DNA of 14,852 nucleotides from a virus. A program made the translations under genes and the position numbers. Below the pieces are notes generated by a model. It searched no databases. It was not told the origin of the DNA and saw nothing but the letters and a program-made list of their open reading frames with translations. The stretch is taken from UHGV virus genome UHGV-1731069. One strand, written 5' to 3'. Below, piece after piece: positions 7,014-12,598 of this stretch; positions within the stretch are counted from its first letter, which is position 1; the number at the start of each line of letters is the position of its first letter.

Positions 7014-7310
7014 TCACTCCTGTTCACTGGCCTCTTTGGCCATCTTCAAATACTGTTCAGGGCAATGCGCCATAACGCGCTGAAACAGTTCCAGCGCCAG
7101 ATTGCGTTGCCCCTCATTAAATGCCATTGCCATAGCGTCCATCGGCGAGATAGCGGAAAACACACGGCCTTTCTCCAGTACCGACCAGACAACCCGACGC
7201 CCCTGTTCACAGCTCATGACAAAGCGAATGTCATCAATTTCACGCTGTGCCATGTCACGTTGCTTACGGGCGTTTTCTTCTTTCAGTTGATCGTCTTCGT
7301 AATCTGTCAT
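7014..7310 (-). CDS. Hypothetical phage protein between portal and scaffold
   Basis: 98-aa ORF, ATG at 7310 overlapping the portal stop (ATGA), GGGTGGG upstream. No recognisable motif. Confidence 0.5.
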   Translation of the reverse strand: MTDYEDDQLKEENARKQRDMAQREIDDIRFVMSCEQGRRVVWSVLEKGRVFSAISPMDAMAMAFNEGQRNLALELFQRVMAHCPEQYLKMAKEASEQE

Positions 7311-8986
7311 TGTGATTGCCCACCCTGACCACTAACTGCATTCGCCATAGCTGACAAAACACTCGGATCCGAAGTTTTAGCTTCGCTTAGCGTCTTGGCC
7401 CCCTGTGCCGCCGCCATCCCCATCGCCATCATTTGTTGCTGCTGTTGCTGCTGTGCCCGTTGCTGGCGAGCCTGCTCAACCTGTTCCTGCGGAACAATGA
7501 CGGTTGGAGACACTCCGGACATATCAGCGAATGCATCGATCGCCTGATCAACGTTGAGTTTGTCGAGAGCTTCTGGTTTCGCTTGCGCAAGTTGACCAAT
7601 GAAGTTAACCGTGGACGCCAGACTGGACAGGCCGATAGACTTCTGCGCCTGAGCCATGACGGAAATGTATTCGACCTTCAGGGGCATGCCTTCCATCGCG
7701 TCAGGCGGTGGCGGCAGCATGTTTTTACGCACCATCATCGAGAAAGCGCGGTCAATGAGAGGATTAAGACATTCGTCGTTCAGACGCTCCAGAACCGGCC
7801 CCAACATCAGAAGTTTTTCTTCTTTCATTTCGATCACCGCTTCAACAGGCATCGAGCGGGTATTGATGTTCTGCAACATCATGAACAGATCGACAAAGTA
7901 GGCGCTGTTAATGATTTGACGAGTGTCCTGAATGTCTGCCACCAAATCTGCTGTACTGGGGTTAACCAGATAAGCAGGCCTGAAGCCATCCTGACCAGTA
8001 ATCTGATCGATATACGTGATGTCGCCAGGAAGAAGGGAGGCGCGCTGATTCTTGAGGGAAGTCGGAGCAACCATCGGCGGATTGGTGGCTTTATCAATCA
8101 ACTGCGACTTGCGCTTCTGGAGAAGCTGCAATGCCTTAACAGGTCCAAGCGCCAGCATGCCCGGGCATGATGATCCATAAACATCTTCACCGTTAACTTC
8201 CCAGCGCGGAGCCATAATTGGAAACTCATCGAATCCGGACTCACGCAACAACTTGTCGTTATCGCCACCAACCTCGTAATAAACCGATTTGAATGGCTTG
8301 TTCTTGCTATCCAGCTTCGATGTATCGCGGTCAATGTTCGGGTAAACCGAATGCATCACGTCAATCCACTTCTCGTAGATGCCGCTTTCCCACATGCTTT
8401 TTACGGATTCGCTGACGTTATTTAGCCCGAACTCCTGAACAAGCTGACGAACAGTCATAGAGAACTTGCGAAAACAGGTGTCAACACTGCCACGAGGTGA
8501 GTTAGCCAGGTAGTAACTGCCTATCGGGAATGGCATTGTGCGAATGATGTCCTCATCATCCTCCAGTACCGCCATTGCACCGGTGCTGTATGTGCCGAGG
8601 CTTCCGTATAACTGCGGCAGCGACTGATAGAGATTCGACTTATTGAACATATCGTTCATGCGGTTCTGCACCGCCTCAAGCCACAACTTAACAGGGCCAT
8701 AATCCATCATTTCAGGATCTGGCGTAGCCAGGCGAAACCACGGACGCGCGGGGCTTGTGATGCCTGACATCATGCCGCTGGCGAGAGTGCGCGCCGCCAT
8801 AGTCCCGGTCGAATCAATAATGTGTGTATTGCGCCGATCGTTACGGTTGGCCTCAGAAGTCAGAAAGCGGGAACCACGCGGGTTGATGTAATCACTCAAC
8901 TCGCGCCAGTGCGGCTCGAACGACTGACGCTCGCTTTCAAGTTGTGCGAACTGTTTGTTCAATCGCTCTTTAGTTGTTTCCGCCAT
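7307..8986 (-). CDS. Portal (head-tail connector) protein
   Basis: 559-aa ORF, ATG at 8986 with GGAG 8 nt upstream. Size, position after the terminase and a Gln/Met/Ala-rich C-terminal tail (QQQQQQQMMAMGMAAAQGA) resemble the T7 gp8-type connector as I recall it. Confidence 0.75.
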   Translation of the reverse strand: MAETTKERLNKQFAQLESERQSFEPHWRELSDYINPRGSRFLTSEANRNDRRNTHIIDSTGTMAARTLASGMMSGITSPARPWFRLATPDPEMMDYGPVKLWLEAVQNRMNDMFNKSNLYQSLPQLYGSLGTYSTGAMAVLEDDEDIIRTMPFPIGSYYLANSPRGSVDTCFRKFSMTVRQLVQEFGLNNVSESVKSMWESGIYEKWIDVMHSVYPNIDRDTSKLDSKNKPFKSVYYEVGGDNDKLLRESGFDEFPIMAPRWEVNGEDVYGSSCPGMLALGPVKALQLLQKRKSQLIDKATNPPMVAPTSLKNQRASLLPGDITYIDQITGQDGFRPAYLVNPSTADLVADIQDTRQIINSAYFVDLFMMLQNINTRSMPVEAVIEMKEEKLLMLGPVLERLNDECLNPLIDRAFSMMVRKNMLPPPPDAMEGMPLKVEYISVMAQAQKSIGLSSLASTVNFIGQLAQAKPEALDKLNVDQAIDAFADMSGVSPTVIVPQEQVEQARQQRAQQQQQQQMMAMGMAAAQGAKTLSEAKTSDPSVLSAMANAVSGQGGQSQ

Positions 8987-9000
8987 TTCAATGACTCCGG

Positions 9001-9207
9001 TTACTGACCAAGCAGCGTTTTACCGCTGGTATTAGCAGTTGATGTGTCGCCCTGAGAACCGGTAAGCAGCGTAGAACTACGACCAGCAGCAGCGCGACGG
9101 CGACGTGTTTCTTCGTCGCGGGCATCAACAACGGCGGCATCCTGCTCCTGTGGTGCTGCCTGAACTTCTGGTGTTGCAGGCACTGATGGTGAGCTACCCA
9201 TGCACAT
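9001..9207 (-). CDS. Small low-complexity protein upstream of portal (possibly a gp7.3-like virion protein)
   Basis: 68-aa ORF with ATG at 9207. Its translation initiation region (CGGAGTCATTGA then ATG) duplicates the portal's over 12 nt, which supports real translation. Ala/Pro/Gln/Ser/Thr-rich with an RRRR cluster. Confidence 0.4.
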   Translation of the reverse strand: MCMGSSPSVPATPEVQAAPQEQDAAVVDARDEETRRRRAAAGRSSTLLTGSQGDTSTANTSGKTLLGQ

Positions 9208-9275
9208 ATCAATGACTCCGTACGCAATTAAATTATTACCAATTTAACCACATATGATTTATTTATCGTAGGTAG

Positions 9276-9304
9276 TTGACATTTAACGCACGAATTATTA
9301 CCTT
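9276..9304 (+). promoter_or_regulatory. Candidate sigma70-type promoter reading toward the tRNA
   Basis: Perfect -35 TTGACA (9276-9281), 17-bp spacer, then TACCTT (9299-9304), which matches the three most conserved -10 positions. Lies in an AT-rich tract with a 10-bp direct repeat AATTATTACC at 9231-9240 and 9293-9302. Confidence 0.25.
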
Positions 9305-9635
9305 TCAGGTAAGTAAAGGGTTCATTCCGGTTATTAACCTGACTGGCTTGTCGTTAAATTGAACAGGTGGAGTGAGCTTTTATTTTGAGCAGTACGGCGT
9401 ATGGCACATGCGCCGATAGCGGTCTGGATACGTTTAAGGGGCACCCTCCCTTGCTCGGGCAAACGAACCAGGTAGCTGGAATGTGCAAGTCGAGCGGTTT
9501 TATTCCGCGCGCGGGGATTCACCATCCCGGCGATTCGGTGTGACGCCTCGGAAGAGACGAGGGTACAACGATGAGAGCATTTATGGAGCTGCGACAAAGT
9601 GTGGCGCACTTAACAGGCTAAGTGCTCTCAGCGTT

Positions 9636-9712
9636 GTGGCATTAGCTCAGTTGGACAGAGCAACCGCCTTCTAAGCGGTTGGTCGCAGGTTCGAATCCTG
9701 CATGCCACGCCA
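9636..9712 (+). tRNA. tRNA-Arg (anticodon TCT, reads AGA), argU-like, phage-encoded
   Basis: Hand-folded cloverleaf: acceptor GTGGCAT/ATGCCAC, D-stem GCTC/GAGC, anticodon stem ACCGC/GCGGT with loop CTTCTAA (anticodon TCT), T-arm GCAGG-TTCGAAT-CCTGC, discriminator G and encoded CCA. Closely resembles E. coli argU as I recall it but with a different acceptor stem. Confidence 0.9.
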
Positions 9713-9755
9713 GAATCACGCCTAAGGACCGTGATGCCAGAAGTTCCAGGGGCTT

Positions 9756-9797
9756 GGCGGTGATGGTTTCCCTTGAAGGACTATCACCGCCCTTTTT
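9756..9797 (+). terminator. Intrinsic terminator-like hairpin downstream of the tRNA
   Basis: 9-bp perfect stem GGCGGTGAT / ATCACCGCC with an 18-nt loop, followed by CTTTTT. Confidence 0.45.
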
Positions 9798-9875
9798 ACA
9801 GCAGGACGCCATTGCGATGACTTCATGCTGTAAACCAGTACAGCCACGGAAGGCATAACTCATTGCTTCCAGTTC

Positions 9876-9899
9876 GCCCGGTTCGCCGGGCATTTTTTT
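9876..9899 (+). terminator. Intrinsic terminator-like hairpin immediately upstream of the 139-aa ORF
   Basis: GCCCGG-ttcg-CCGGGC (UUCG tetraloop), then A and seven T. The SD AGGTGA (9901-9906) and ATG 9911 follow directly. Confidence 0.55.
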
Positions 9900-9910
9900 A
9901 AGGTGAGATC

Positions 9911-10330
9911 ATGAAGACAATTGATATGTTGGCTAAGTATCTAAATGAATGGCCATTAAAATATTCTCGTATCGTTCAGGCTGAAGACTGCATTTTTTAT
10001 GGCGTTTTTGCTGATAATGAAATGCATTACGAAGTAATTCAGAGTGAGGGACTGGCCGGGTTAACTCTTAGCGAAGACCATGGTACTAGCGTTACGTTCC
10101 ATGACTGGATAACAGCACAACGTTCTGAAATGGAAAAAGGCGATGTGTTTGATATTTCTCGCGCTGTTTACGCTAAAGCAAAAAGTGATAATGATTACAT
10201 GAGCGAACACTTATACAACATGAAGTTACAATGCCTGCATGCGGCGCTTATTCAGAATGGGCACTTCGATAAAACAAGTGCCATCAATATTGCGGAAGCC
10301 ATCAACGCTGGATTTAATGCCATTAAATAA
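9911..10330 (+). CDS. Hypothetical protein, moron-like accessory gene of unknown function
   Basis: 139-aa ORF on the opposite strand to all flanking genes, with SD AGGTGA 4 nt before the ATG and its own downstream terminator. Hand count gives about 30-37 percent G+C over the first 110 nt, clearly below the flanking structural genes. No recognisable catalytic motif or transmembrane segment. Confidence 0.6.
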   Translation: MKTIDMLAKYLNEWPLKYSRIVQAEDCIFYGVFADNEMHYEVIQSEGLAGLTLSEDHGTSVTFHDWITAQRSEMEKGDVFDISRAVYAKAKSDNDYMSEHLYNMKLQCLHAALIQNGHFDKTSAINIAEAINAGFNAIK

Positions 10331-10333
10331 CAC

Positions 10334-10347
10334 CGTGACATGTCACA
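10334..10347. repeat. CGTGACATGTCACA, containing the perfect 12-bp palindrome GTGACATGTCAC (copy 1)
   Basis: Read directly; lies between the stop of the 139-aa ORF and its terminator, 74 nt from the large terminase stop. An identical 14-mer is at 12599-12612. Confidence 0.6.
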
Positions 10348-10350
10348 AAC

Positions 10351-10377
10351 AGCCAGCCGATGAGCTGGCTTTGTTTT
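10351..10377 (+). terminator. Intrinsic terminator of the 139-aa ORF
   Basis: AGCCAGC-cgatga-GCTGGCT followed by TTGTTTT. Confidence 0.6.
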
Positions 10378-10420
10378 ATCCTCATCAGAGGATATCAACG
10401 ACATTATCCCCACCAGCGGA

Positions 10421-11896
10421 TTAAGCATAGGGATCGTAATCTGTGATGGCCTTGCCTTGCTGGTTCTGCTGCCCGGGAATTCGCAGACGCTTCGACACAG
10501 GAAAAGCAAACGTCAGCAGTAGCGCATCGCCTTTACCCGGCGAACGCCCAAGCCGCTCCTTGATATCTTCCTTCGGTTCGATAACGATTTTACCGTCCAC
10601 GCGAACTTTGTACTCTGCCGCCGACAGGTCGTCTGCAGTTTCCTGGTCATCCAGCATGCCGCCCAGCCTCAGCCATGTCTTACATGAGTTGAACATCTCC
10701 CCACGCTTGTTGAGCATCTGCGGGTCAGTAGACGCGCCACCGAACGGAACAAGTTGCCATGTACGACCCCAGCCGTCACCGATTGACTTCAGACCAGTTC
10801 CGTAACCGAAGTCGATGAACACTGCGTCAGCCTGGTACTGGTCTTCAAAGTCAGCGATACGCTTCGCCATAATCAGATCGTCAGTGGTCTTGTTGCCAGT
10901 CCACAGCACCTTACTGTGCAGCCCCTGCCGCAGGTATATCACAGCGTCATCAACGCCTGAGTATGCCGGGTCAACGCCGATTATCACCGGAGCATGTGCA
11001 ACCTGCGCAGCGGTGACCACCCGTTTCATTGCCTCGTCAGTAAGTCCGGTAGGGATAAACTGCAATTCAGATGCATCCGGGAATATGCCGCGCACACGGA
11101 TTTTAACGAAGTCGCTGTCTTCCCCGTAGTCATCAACCCATTTCTGCAACTGCTGTTTGTTGGTGCCTTCCACCGTCCGGCTGTCAATCTGCGCAGTTTT
11201 CCAGCGGTGTTTATATTTGCGGAAACATTCGCGGAAACGTCCGGTATTACGCGTCGGGTTTCCGAACGCCACCCAGATAATCTCAGTGTCTTCGTCCGTA
11301 AGCGCACCCTCAGCAACTTCCCACACCAGATCCGCAATGTTCGACGCTTCATCGAATACCACGATGATGCGTTTGCGCTCGTTGTGTAGTCCGGCGAATG
11401 CCTCAGTGTTGTGCTCAGACCAGGGGATTGCGTCAGCTCGCCACCGCTTGTCGTGCCCAGGATCATTGCTGTACATCGCGGTAGCGGTACAGGTAAACCA
11501 GTCTTTCGTGATAGCAAGGTTCGACCACTTGATAATTTCCGGCCAGGTCTTCGTTCGTAGCTGGTTGTCGGTGTTGGCAGTCACCACGACCTTACAATCC
11601 TCGCAAGTGGACATGCCCCAGTTGATCAGCATTGAGATGAATGCGGATTTACCAATACCGTGACCAGAAGCGCGTGCCAGCATAAGCGGCTGATAGCGCG
11701 TCTCTGGATTCTGCAGGTGATCACGTATCTCTCGGAACGCATCAGCCTGCCACTGACGTGGGCCGGTGGCATGTGCCAGTTCAGTCCCCTCTTCCCCCCA
11801 CGGGAACGCATAGAGGGCATAGCCAAGCGGATCGTGAGTGAACCCTGCAATATCCTCGATCAACTGCTCTTCAGGAGATAACGCTGTATCTGTCAC
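10421..11896 (-). CDS. Terminase large subunit
   Basis: 491 aa with Walker A-like ARASGHGIGKS, Walker B-like IIVVFDEAS, and a C-terminal nuclease-like region (VIIGVDPAYSGVDDAV). GTG start at 11896 overlaps the small subunit stop (GTGA); there is no in-frame ATG nearby. Confidence 0.85.
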   Translation of the reverse strand: MTDTALSPEEQLIEDIAGFTHDPLGYALYAFPWGEEGTELAHATGPRQWQADAFREIRDHLQNPETRYQPLMLARASGHGIGKSAFISMLINWGMSTCEDCKVVVTANTDNQLRTKTWPEIIKWSNLAITKDWFTCTATAMYSNDPGHDKRWRADAIPWSEHNTEAFAGLHNERKRIIVVFDEASNIADLVWEVAEGALTDEDTEIIWVAFGNPTRNTGRFRECFRKYKHRWKTAQIDSRTVEGTNKQQLQKWVDDYGEDSDFVKIRVRGIFPDASELQFIPTGLTDEAMKRVVTAAQVAHAPVIIGVDPAYSGVDDAVIYLRQGLHSKVLWTGNKTTDDLIMAKRIADFEDQYQADAVFIDFGYGTGLKSIGDGWGRTWQLVPFGGASTDPQMLNKRGEMFNSCKTWLRLGGMLDDQETADDLSAAEYKVRVDGKIVIEPKEDIKERLGRSPGKGDALLLTFAFPVSKRLRIPGQQNQQGKAITDYDPYA

Positions 11897-12489
11897 TGAT
11901 TACCATCCTGACGTTCTTTGAGTCGCTTCCTGGCTGCTGCTATGCGATCAGCAATTGTCACATTCACATTAACATCCAGACGTTCTTTGAACGCGTTGAC
12001 ATCAACATGCTTACCAATCAGCTCAAGGTTCTTCACCTTGTCAGGCCATTTAATTTTTTTGAGGATTGTCTCTATCGAATCCTCGTTCATGTTCATGATG
12101 GTCGATGACAGATCAAAGCCACTAAGCGTAGTGCGCCAGATTTTCGGCCACTCACGGATTGGTTTAAGGCTCCCATCGTCGTTGAGGATATCGATCACGT
12201 CCATCTGGTCGATCTCCACCAGGCGCATGAGAACGTAATCAGCACTGACGCGCATTCGTTTGTTGCGCTCCTCCATCAACTCGGCAATCCGTTTTTGAAT
12301 GCGTTCATCGCGCATCATGACACTGGCTTTAACTGCCGCTGTATTTGGGGAGAATCCTGCATTAATCGCTGCCTGAGTCTGGTTTTCAGGCGTTTTGATG
12401 TATGACTGGCAATAAGCCTCCTGCATTGCTGTTAGTGGCTTAAATTGCGTTGATTTGCGTTTATAGGTTTTAGGTTCAGCAGGCATCAT
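11893..12489 (-). CDS. Terminase small subunit (Terminase_2-like)
   Basis: Helix-turn-helix region QEAYCQSYIKTPENQTQAAINAGFSPNTAAV...RIQKRIAELMEER is typical of Terminase_2-type small subunits as I recall them. The ORF track starts at TTG 12567, but that extension contains a terminator hairpin and direct repeats; the ATG pair at 12489/12486 follows GGTGG. True start is probably 12486 or 12489. Confidence 0.75.
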   Translation of the reverse strand: MMPAEPKTYKRKSTQFKPLTAMQEAYCQSYIKTPENQTQAAINAGFSPNTAAVKASVMMRDERIQKRIAELMEERNKRMRVSADYVLMRLVEIDQMDVIDILNDDGSLKPIREWPKIWRTTLSGFDLSSTIMNMNEDSIETILKKIKWPDKVKNLELIGKHVDVNAFKERLDVNVNVTIADRIAAARKRLKERQDGNQ

Positions 12490-12496
12490 AACCACC

Positions 12497-12525
12497 GTGG
12501 TAATAGTTACCGTTGTGGTAATAGT
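12497..12525. repeat. Two 11-bp direct repeats GTGGTAATAGT just upstream of the terminase small subunit start
   Basis: Copies at 12497-12507 and 12515-12525, between the upstream terminator and the start codon. Could be protein-binding sites; function unknown. Confidence 0.4.
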
Positions 12526-12530
12526 ACCAT

Positions 12531-12558
12531 GCAAAATAAAGCCGCCATAGTTGGCGGC
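12531..12558 (-). terminator. Intrinsic terminator separating the accessory operon from the terminase genes
   Basis: In the minus transcript: GCCGCCA-acua-UGGCGGC followed by UUUAUUUUG. Confidence 0.55.
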
Positions 12559-12598
12559 AGTATTCAAAACCCATCAAATTCATCATGCATAATCTACT

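Follow-up and report, generated by a model that had tools for sequence, protein, structure and literature searches.

The window analysed here, a 14,852-nt stretch of viral DNA (UHGV-1731069), is an epsilon15-like (Uetakevirus) prophage of E. coli, which shares 94–98% identity with phages HEMP4, phiV10 and ZX5 and >99% with prophages carried on several E. coli chromosomes. Its late and structural genes lie on the minus strand, and between terL and gp3 (the latter encoding a low-complexity protein) sits an island of ~1.2 kb on the opposite strand, which carries a tRNA-Arg and an accessory, or "cargo", gene that we call ORF139. Read in order, this conserved plus-strand unit consists of a putative promoter (P+), a structured RNA that we term Domain A, the tRNA-Arg, a terminator-like hairpin (T1), a second hairpin (H2), another terminator-like hairpin (T2), and then the Shine-Dalgarno sequence (SD) and ATG of the cargo gene (Table 1). 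Our subject is the 3' end of the unit, between the tRNA-Arg and ORF139, which an initial annotation had flagged as a possible site of attenuation. Literature searches on the invariant sequences, Uetakevirus transcriptomes, SPC32H operators and put-like RNAs yielded no description of this leader.

Table 1. Features of the plus-strand island and neighbouring genes, numbered from the first nucleotide of the window
Feature	Position	Strand	Description
Putative promoter P+	9276-9304	plus	-35 TTGACA 9276-9281, 17-bp spacer, -10 TACCTT 9299-9304
Presumed repressor operator	9297-9313 (match 9298-9312)		palindrome ATTACC-N5-GGTAA; overlaps the -10 and start site of P+
Domain A	9395-9562	plus	~170-nt pseudoknotted RNA, four stems and a pseudoknot
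Domain A S1	9395-9399/9411-9415	plus	
Domain A S2 base	9423-9427/~9466-9470	plus	
Domain A S4	9514-9517/9525-9528	plus	
Domain A pseudoknot	9520-9523/9537-9540	plus	CACC with GGUG
Domain A S5	9546-9550/9558-9562	plus	
Stem B	9565-9637	plus	ACAACG..GAGAGCAUU with AGUGCUCUC..CGUUGU; encloses a variable hairpin, abuts the tRNA
tRNA-Arg (UCU)	9636-9712	plus	ARAGORN; Rfam tRNA, 73.3 bits
P0	9715-9735	plus	hairpin ATCACG/CGTGAT, 9-nt loop; near-invariant in phages with and without the tRNA
T1	9756-9797	plus	terminator scan; hairpin GGCGGTGATGGTTTCCCTTGAAGGACTATCACCGCC (9756-9791, 14 pairs), then CTTTTT (U5)
H2	9795-9834	plus	lower stem UUUACA/UGUAAA, internal loops of invariant bases, apical CAU-UNCG-AUG
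Mini-ORF	ATG 9817 to TAA 9856-9858	plus	13 codons, MTSCCKPVQPRKA; not conserved as coding
H3	9848-9870	plus	weak 5-bp hairpin, GGAAG 9848-9852 / CTTCC 9866-9870
T2	9876-9899	plus	terminator scan; hairpin GCCCGGTTCGCCGGGC (9876-9891, 6 G-C pairs, UUCG loop), then A and U7
SD and cargo ATG	9900-9913	plus	conserved left junction of the cargo slot; SD AAGGTGA 9900-9906, ATG 9911
ORF139	9911-10330	plus	cargo gene, phrog_4846 (PHROG 4846 at 2.9e-88)
Right border of cargo slot	10335-10370		between ORF139 and terL; perfect 12-bp palindrome GTGACATGTCAC (10335-10346) and hairpin T3 (10351-10370)
terS	11893-12567	minus	
terL	10421-11896	minus	
gp3	9001-9207	minus	
portal	7307-8986	minus	

The two hairpins with T-runs that had been noted ahead of ORF139 are both recovered by a terminator scan, T1 with a predicted stability of -22.0 kcal/mol and T2, a GCCCGG-UUCG-CCGGGC hairpin followed by A and T7 at 9893–9899, with one of -11.2 kcal/mol. 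The T-run of T2 also ends, as had been described, one nucleotide before the SD (9899 against 9900). The number of terminator-like sites, four against 1.8 ± 1.7 in shuffled sequences, is not significant by itself, and it is by their conservation, rather than by raw count, that the hairpins stand out from chance. The module that contains them (9713–9913) is common to Uetakevirus phages of Escherichia, Salmonella, Klebsiella and Enterobacter, as seen by blastn and in alignments, and profile searches place it also in prophages of Citrobacter, Erwinia, Pseudocitrobacter and Superficieibacter. Scanned by pattern, IMG/VR gave at least 120 loci, with 110 distinct leaders among the matches listed.

A covariation test on 30 non-redundant leaders, with 500 shuffles and slid controls, was applied to the structure made up of T1, H2, the weak hairpin H3 and T2. 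Some 95.6% of cells are paired, as compared with 37–52% in the slid controls, and changes on both sides of a pair occupy 53 cells against 18 ± 3 in the shuffles, none of the 500 reaching the observed value. The G-U pairs are compatible with the plus strand only. Taken singly, T1 is 93.7% paired over its 8 counted pairs, two of which have changed on both sides, and its G-U pairs, too, are of the plus-strand kind; hairpins of the T1 type come to ~ -20 kcal/mol. For T2 the figure is 99.4%, with two pairs changed on both sides in 11 of the 30 sequences, such that the stem alternates between GCCCGG..CCGGGC and GCCCAC..GUGGGC (GG..CC to AC..GU). The GenBank record of epsilon15 marks T2 as a rho-independent terminator, before the gene next to terL. 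Both hairpins possess, then, the GC-rich stem-loop and U-tract on the transcribed strand by which intrinsic terminators are recognized, and both are maintained by compensatory, strand-specific substitution. Judged from these sequence comparisons, T1 and T2 are very probably genuine, conserved intrinsic terminators that would define the 3' ends of the unit's RNAs.

The best-conserved element of the module lies between them and is absent from the initial annotation. This hairpin, H2, is 99.2% paired over 13 pairs in the 30 leaders, and two of these covary: 9805/9824, which goes from G-C to A-U in 11 sequences, and 9806/9823, which goes from A-U to G-C or G-U. The apical loop occurs as UGCG, UCCG, UACG or UUCG and therefore bears the signature of a UNCG tetraloop.

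No promoter was found between the tRNA and ORF139, even with the requirement relaxed to 7 of 12 matches, in agreement with the initial annotation; nor is there a promoter-like site in 9713–9915 or, at the scan threshold, a sigma-70-like promoter anywhere in 9000–10600. The potential hexamers TTTACA (9795), TTGCGA (9812) and TGTAAA (9829) were rejected, as none has a partner at 16–18 bp on either strand. The earlier suggestion that ORF139 depends on upstream transcription is likewise supported: with no promoter of its own and two terminator-like hairpins in front of it, the gene can be transcribed only by polymerases that read through from upstream. On the plus strand the highest-scoring promoter-like match (9/12), and the sole conserved promoter-like element, is P+, ~600 nt upstream of ORF139. 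In an alignment of the terL–gp3 region from 11 phages its TTGAC and TACC(T/C)T are invariant and its spacer is always 17 bp long and variable in sequence, and the same arrangement recurs in prophages of ~10 further genera.

P+ is overlapped by a palindrome of a type that matches three times in the window, against 0.2 matches expected. The GenBank record of epsilon15 labels the homologous site as one bound by the 'repressor', and the epsilon15 genome contains 11 palindromes of this operator type, including clusters that flank the repressor gene on both sides. Because the presumed operator overlaps P+, the unit would be expected to stay off in the lysogen and to be switched on soon after infection or induction; P+ is a putative promoter, and the unit that it heads would be a repressor-controlled early one. 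Two more palindromes of the operator type (TAACC/TTACC-N5-GGTAA), at 12489–12503 and 12507–12521, fall within the 5' end of terS as annotated. The terS of epsilon15 is shorter, with the corresponding site lying upstream of it, and the terS start in the window may for this reason be mis-called; the terS–terL unit may be under direct repressor control.

At the other end of the leader, homology between phages stops at the cargo start codon, beyond which the cargo differs. In 86 of 109 distinct junctions the SD and ATG follow the U-run of T2 at a distance of 7–16 nt, mostly 11–12. Among the remaining 23 junctions, 19 carry an operator-like palindrome, TACC-N5-GGTA, downstream of T2, and in 17 distinct loci a promoter of the form xTGACx-16/18-TAnnnT follows T2 and drives the cargo. 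That an operator-like palindrome comes directly after T2 in these 19 distinct loci supports the assignment of T2 as the end of the unit. The slot holds at least 14 protein families, among them PF13876 (N4 gp49/Sf6 gp66) in phiV10 and epsilon15 and PF11195 (Tad2-like) in a Klebsiella phage. The GTGACATGTCAC palindrome and T3 are conserved downstream of unrelated cargo genes. The terminator scan finds T3 on the plus strand, and since phiV10 annotates the homologous hairpin as a terminator for the terL strand, T3 may work in both directions. In the Enterobacter phage Tyrion (locus L004) an int-alpA RNA motif (RF02996, 44 bits, above the gathering score) occupies 1766–1830, just 3' of the cargo.

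ORF139 itself has no Pfam match, and its homologues are all annotated 'hypothetical'. An AlphaFold2 model has a mean predicted local distance difference test score of 61 and is confident only in a C-terminal helical hairpin. The last ~45 residues (KSDxDYxxEHLYNMKLQCLHAALIQxGxFDKTNAxNIAEAINAGFDAIK) recur in proteins with a different N-terminal half, such as the Tyrion cargo, a pattern that points to a modular protein in which the C-terminal helical hairpin stays constant; divergent versions of the segment are encoded in Superficieibacter and on a contig labelled 'Pseudomonas lundensis'. Several homologues (P0012–P0014, P0028, P0067–P0069, P0079, P0085 and P0094) are listed at 172–204 aa. These lengths arise because gene callers start upstream, through T2 and H2, and the N-terminal extensions are probably artefacts. 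By analogy with other occupants of the slot, and from them only, an anti-defence role is suggested for ORF139.

The slot resembles phage morons and anti-defence hot spots in that a small accessory gene on the opposite strand interrupts the structural region and is followed by a terminator (T3), and in that its occupants vary widely, a Tad2-like protein among them. A classic moron, on the other hand, has its own promoter. ORF139 has none directly upstream and sits behind terminators at a conserved T2-SD-ATG junction, whereas a promoter of that kind is found in 17–19 other loci; the downstream terminator and the variable gene are both present.

Taken together, these observations lead us to a reading to which we assign a probability of about 0.55, namely that the flagged stretch closes a conserved plus-strand unit as its 3'-terminal module, that T1 and T2 are its terminators, and that ORF139 is expressed by read-through only. 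Transcription would start ~600 nt upstream of ORF139, at TTGACA-17-TACCTT, from a promoter kept silent in the lysogen by the presumed operator and active early after infection or induction. The unit would be mostly non-coding, yielding the Domain A RNA and tRNA-Arg before the polymerase meets T1, H2 and T2. T2, SD and ATG would form the fixed left junction, and the GTGACATGTCAC palindrome and T3 the right junction, of a cassette in which accessory genes are swapped, and ORF139 would be made only by those polymerases that pass both T1 and T2, which would serve as an attenuator or insulator setting its level. Read-through at T1 and T2 may be either a passive leak or active antitermination.

The comparison with intrinsic terminators that act as leader attenuators or insulators is close in several respects. 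There is a GC-rich hairpin with a U-tract on the sense strand, with compensatory changes, positioned between an upstream promoter and a downstream gene. The present case differs in that two tandem terminators flank a conserved hairpin, H2, that is not itself a terminator, in that T2 is linked directly to the SD and start codon of a gene exchanged between phages, and in that there is neither a competing antiterminator structure nor a sensing open reading frame (ORF).

Several points weigh against this reading. T2, with its six G-C pairs, UUCG loop and U7, looks strong, so that passive leak might give very little ORF139, and yet the conserved SD and ATG imply that the cargo is expressed. In lambdoid phages a T1-type hairpin lies between PL and the early genes, a hint that read-through may be actively promoted. 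The invariant loop bases of H2 are left without an explanation, and the -10 element of P+, TACCTT, is weak. In the phages that account for 14 of the 86 junctions, where the upstream ORF is in frame with the cargo, an alternative long cargo start may be used. Finally, promoter use, timing, read-through and termination efficiency are all matters that we infer.

Active processive antitermination is an alternative that we regard as possible, if rather unlikely. Domain A (in the manner of HK022 put or Bacillus EAR), or a protein bound to H2 (in the manner of lambda N and boxB), would render polymerases from P+ resistant to termination, T1 and T2 would stop unmodified polymerases only, and expression of the cargo would be high at early times. 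Over 51 non-redundant sequences, 97.0% of the cells of Domain A are paired, against 28–48% in slid controls, and 13 pairs have changed on both sides (101 cells), a value reached by none of 500 shuffles; the pseudoknot shows a C-G to A-U change in four sequences. Neither the leader nor Domain A matches a family in Rfam 15 (GOLLD, ROOL, C4, STnc100 and RyhB included), with only the tRNA passing the gathering threshold in the window and with nothing for the leader in scans by E-value that covered 9200–10420 and 12 related loci. The nearest match was STnc100, at 32 bits against a threshold of 47, on a tRNA-like module from Pantoea; the STnc100/PasD papers concern a different small RNA (sRNA), in the lambdoid late region, and the candidate was dropped. 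Domain A is apparently an undescribed, widespread phage RNA. It is present, and never annotated, in 1826 of 5426 complete E. coli genomes, and copies elsewhere include L183 (~1336–1523), L184 and L279 (2495–2680; P1 71023–71191).

The placement of Domain A argues for antitermination. In three unrelated phage groups it stands immediately downstream of repressor-controlled early promoters: after P+ in Uetakevirus; just after PL in the lambdoid phages mEp460, cdtI, 2H10 and the Stx2c and Stx2a types, which for mEp460 and the Stx2c-type phages is the nutL/N position of lambda; and, in P1 and P7, between trnI and ban in the C1-controlled ban operon, behind Pban. A terminator-like hairpin on the same strand, mostly of the T1 type, follows Domain A in 36 of 43 non-redundant contexts, the lambdoid ones included, with early genes beyond it, as is the case for the lambdoid phages. 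T2 is seemingly too strong for a useful passive leak, the internal-loop bases of H2 are invariant in the way of RNAs that bind proteins or polymerase, and some of the cargo is Tad2-like. Tad2-like sponge proteins need high early expression.

Against these arguments, Domain A shows no sequence similarity to HK022 putL, a blastn comparison of 9208–9915 with the HK022 immunity region, putL included, giving only chance matches of at most 17 nt; homology to the two-stem, ~70-nt put RNA is thus lacking, even though the location between an early promoter and terminators is that of put. There is one copy of Domain A per phage genome, which consequently cannot serve both early operons, and no terminator follows it in the P1-type contexts. 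The prophages at L137, L157 and L140 keep T2 and a cargo gene without T1 and H2, and 19 loci have acquired a cargo promoter after T2. Domain A therefore resembles lambda N/nut, HK022 put and Bacillus EAR as a structured RNA that comes after a repressor-controlled early promoter and before terminators and early genes, at the very place, after PL in mEp460 and Stx2c-type phages, that nutL and putL occupy, but it differs from them in being unlike putL in sequence, in occurring once per genome rather than once per early operon, in being much larger, and in being combined with a tRNA or tRNA-like module. A bolder form of the same idea, which we consider speculative and unlikely, is that Domain A, its tRNA or tRNA-like partner and a T1-type hairpin constitute a new class of cis-acting early-operon RNA, the third RNA-only processive antiterminator after put and EAR, with T1 and T2 as conditional gates. 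Were this true, the gates would silence cargo such as ORF139 except in transcripts from the repressor-controlled early promoter.

With GOLLD and ROOL, Domain A shares the property of being a structured RNA encoded by phages or prophages next to a tRNA or tRNA-like element; it differs in having no match to their Rfam models, in its smaller size (~170 nt) and in its occurrence in enterobacterial temperate phages, and the comparison is one of genomic context alone. Also 5' of Domain A in Uetakevirus (9311–9394 of the window) is a module (A/G)AAGCGCRY ... GUCGUUAAAU ... GGAGYGCGCUUY. The GUCGUUAAAU module is found after Domain A or after T1 in other phages (with repeats in L188–L190, L204 and L210), the repeated form "GUCGUUAAAU...GGAGUGCGC" having been judged by eye, and because its position relative to Domain A and T1 differs between phages, it suggests that these leaders are mosaics of shuffled RNA modules. 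In L210 and L253, short hairpins are arrayed after a T1-like terminator and before the next genes, with loops of the GGAAAGAC type (CCCGGAAAGACGGG and GCCGGGAAAGACCGGC, for instance); they resemble the S5 loop of Domain A, GAAGAGA, and are reminiscent of boxB-like protein-binding hairpins.

Between Domain A and T1, the position of the tRNA is a variable slot. Phages without the tRNA include epsilon15, Tyrion and PAT1, and other phages have at this point tRNA-like modules, small inserts or nothing. The tRNA-like modules (L004, L009, L011, L137, L139, L144, L157, L183, L184) were recognized by eye from GUGGUG...CACCAC ends, a D-arm-like GCGC-AGGCUGAU-GCGC and a T-arm-like hairpin (canonical GGUUCGACUCC in L137), with long variable inserts; some loci have two of them, and ARAGORN makes no call on any. 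In epsilon15 (L003, 1150–1250, as against SPN1S, L005), the tRNA and most of the leader are missing because of a deletion between direct repeats GGTTCCCTTGATGCT, one in the leader and one in the loop of T1; the T1 that remains is a hybrid and is weakened. Stem B, which abuts the tRNA, has compensatory variants that can be seen by eye in the alignments and printed loci (GAGAGC/GCUCUC, AAGAGC/GCUCUU, AAAGAGCG/CGCUCUUU). A boxA-like UGCUCU upstream of the tRNA was set aside, as it is the 3' strand of a covarying stem.

If read-through into the cassette is the preferred account of the leader, one may still ask whether the segment from H2 to T2 is itself the product. The stretch H2-H3-T2 (~9795–9899) would on this proposal be a ~100-nt sRNA, cut from read-through transcripts and acting in trans on host or phage mRNAs, with ORF139 merely behind the sRNA terminator. 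The architecture fits, consisting as it does of a conserved, partly single-stranded region, hairpins, and a GC hairpin ending in U7; H2 has the invariant primary sequence often shown by seed regions; T2 ends the unit where a new promoter follows; and there is an architectural match to RyhB, weak and non-significant (18 bits, E = 2.1). Yet H2-H3-T2 has no promoter and no identified target, the invariant bases fall mostly within a covariation-supported hairpin rather than an open seed, and some prophages do without H2. We think an sRNA improbable, and it would in any event be compatible with read-through rather than exclusive of it.

The initial annotation had also raised, as a speculation, attenuation that senses Cys or Cys-tRNA, in which a ribosome stalling at tandem Cys codons of the 13-codon mini-ORF would decide whether T2 forms. 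The mini-ORF does lie where it had been placed, with AGGA (9803–9806) 10 nt 5' of its ATG and the tandem codons UGC UGU at 9826–9831, and its stop codon is indeed in the loop of the 5-bp hairpin H3; what fails is its conservation as a coding feature. The ATG (9817–9819) is invariant, but it forms the 3' strand of the apical CAU/AUG stem beside the UNCG loop, and the two Cys codons are the strand GCUGUAAA that pairs with UUUACAGC in the lower stem of H2. Over 109 distinct leaders the peptide read from this ATG starts with MTSCC in 75, MTLRC in 29, MTLCC in 2, MTLFC in 2 and MAFCC in 1, so that Arg-Cys replaces Cys-Cys in the 29 MTLRC leaders, and the AGGA is AGAA or AGAG in many phages. The ORF ranges from 13 to >170 codons and meets four fates relative to T2, without pattern: in the 86 loci whose cargo starts directly after T2, it ends upstream of T2 in 33, reads through T2 but ends no later than the cargo ATG in 31, joins the reading frame of the cargo in 14, and continues past the cargo ATG in another frame in 8. 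The same conserved leader nucleotides are, in effect, read in different frames in different phages.

The structural side of such an attenuator fares no better. H3 is 84.1% paired with essentially no covariation (one double change, in one sequence); it is deleted, along with the mini-ORF stop, in phage PAS61, which has an ORF139 homologue, and is different in the Klebsiella and L058/L081 types. Folding for mutually exclusive terminator and antiterminator structures, a check that had been proposed at the outset, gave none: T1, H2, H3 and T2 all coexist in the minimum-energy and centroid folds, the RNAalifold consensus of the leader contains no competing helix, and no upstream sequence is complementary to either arm of T2. 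The cargo genes have no link to cysteine metabolism. The leader thus recalls trp and pyrBI attenuation in that a short ORF precedes a terminator within a 5' leader, and departs from them in that the ORF is unconserved in length, frame and key codons, a stable hairpin encloses its start codon, alternative pairings are absent, and the downstream gene is unrelated to the amino acid. Because the ORF varies, its SD is not conserved and the hairpins coexist without an antiterminator, the idea of a Cys sensor finds no support and we hold it to be highly improbable; comparison of the leaders indicates instead that the mini-ORF and its Cys codons are a by-product of the H2 hairpin and encode no sensing peptide. 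A LexA-like box (CTGT-N8-ACAG, 9828–9843) in the same stretch is unconserved in the Salmonella and Klebsiella types and was for that reason put down to chance.

Equally far-fetched, in our estimation, is the notion that the conservation reflects either a minus-strand protein gene or a promoter hidden in H2: an 83-aa PhiV10p04-like ORF does run from 9642 to 9893, and gene callers place minus-strand ORFs here in phiV10, TL-2011b, SPN1S, SPNIS2 and BUCT711, but the 83-aa ORF overlaps the tRNA, the frame that stays open longest over the core is not the same in all phages (frame 2 in 18, frame 1 in 12) and the flanking residues are unrelated, while the invariant TTTACA (9795–9800), as a -35, has no -10 partner 16–18 bp away on either strand, is missing from a contig (L127) that has the rest of H2, and is accounted for by the lower stem of H2 and the U-tract of T1.

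In practical terms, the region now carries spurious minus-strand ORFs and cargo genes with N-terminal extensions that run through a terminator, both of which the present analysis replaces. It also defines a landing pad in epsilon15-like phages, T2-SD-ATG ... palindrome-T3, at which at least 14 accessory families, including a Tad2-like anti-Thoeris protein, are exchanged, and which should be useful both for mining anti-defence genes and for engineering these phages. Tandem intrinsic terminators and an accessory-gene cassette are elements of known kinds, and the more interesting lead is the Domain A RNA attached to them, which in Uetakevirus, in P1/P7 and in Stx and other lambdoid phages stands at the head of early operons under repressor control, and which is found in about one-third of complete E. 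coli genomes. If Domain A controls elongation or RNA processing, it would be a missing piece of early regulation in lambdoid phages that have no N and in P1.

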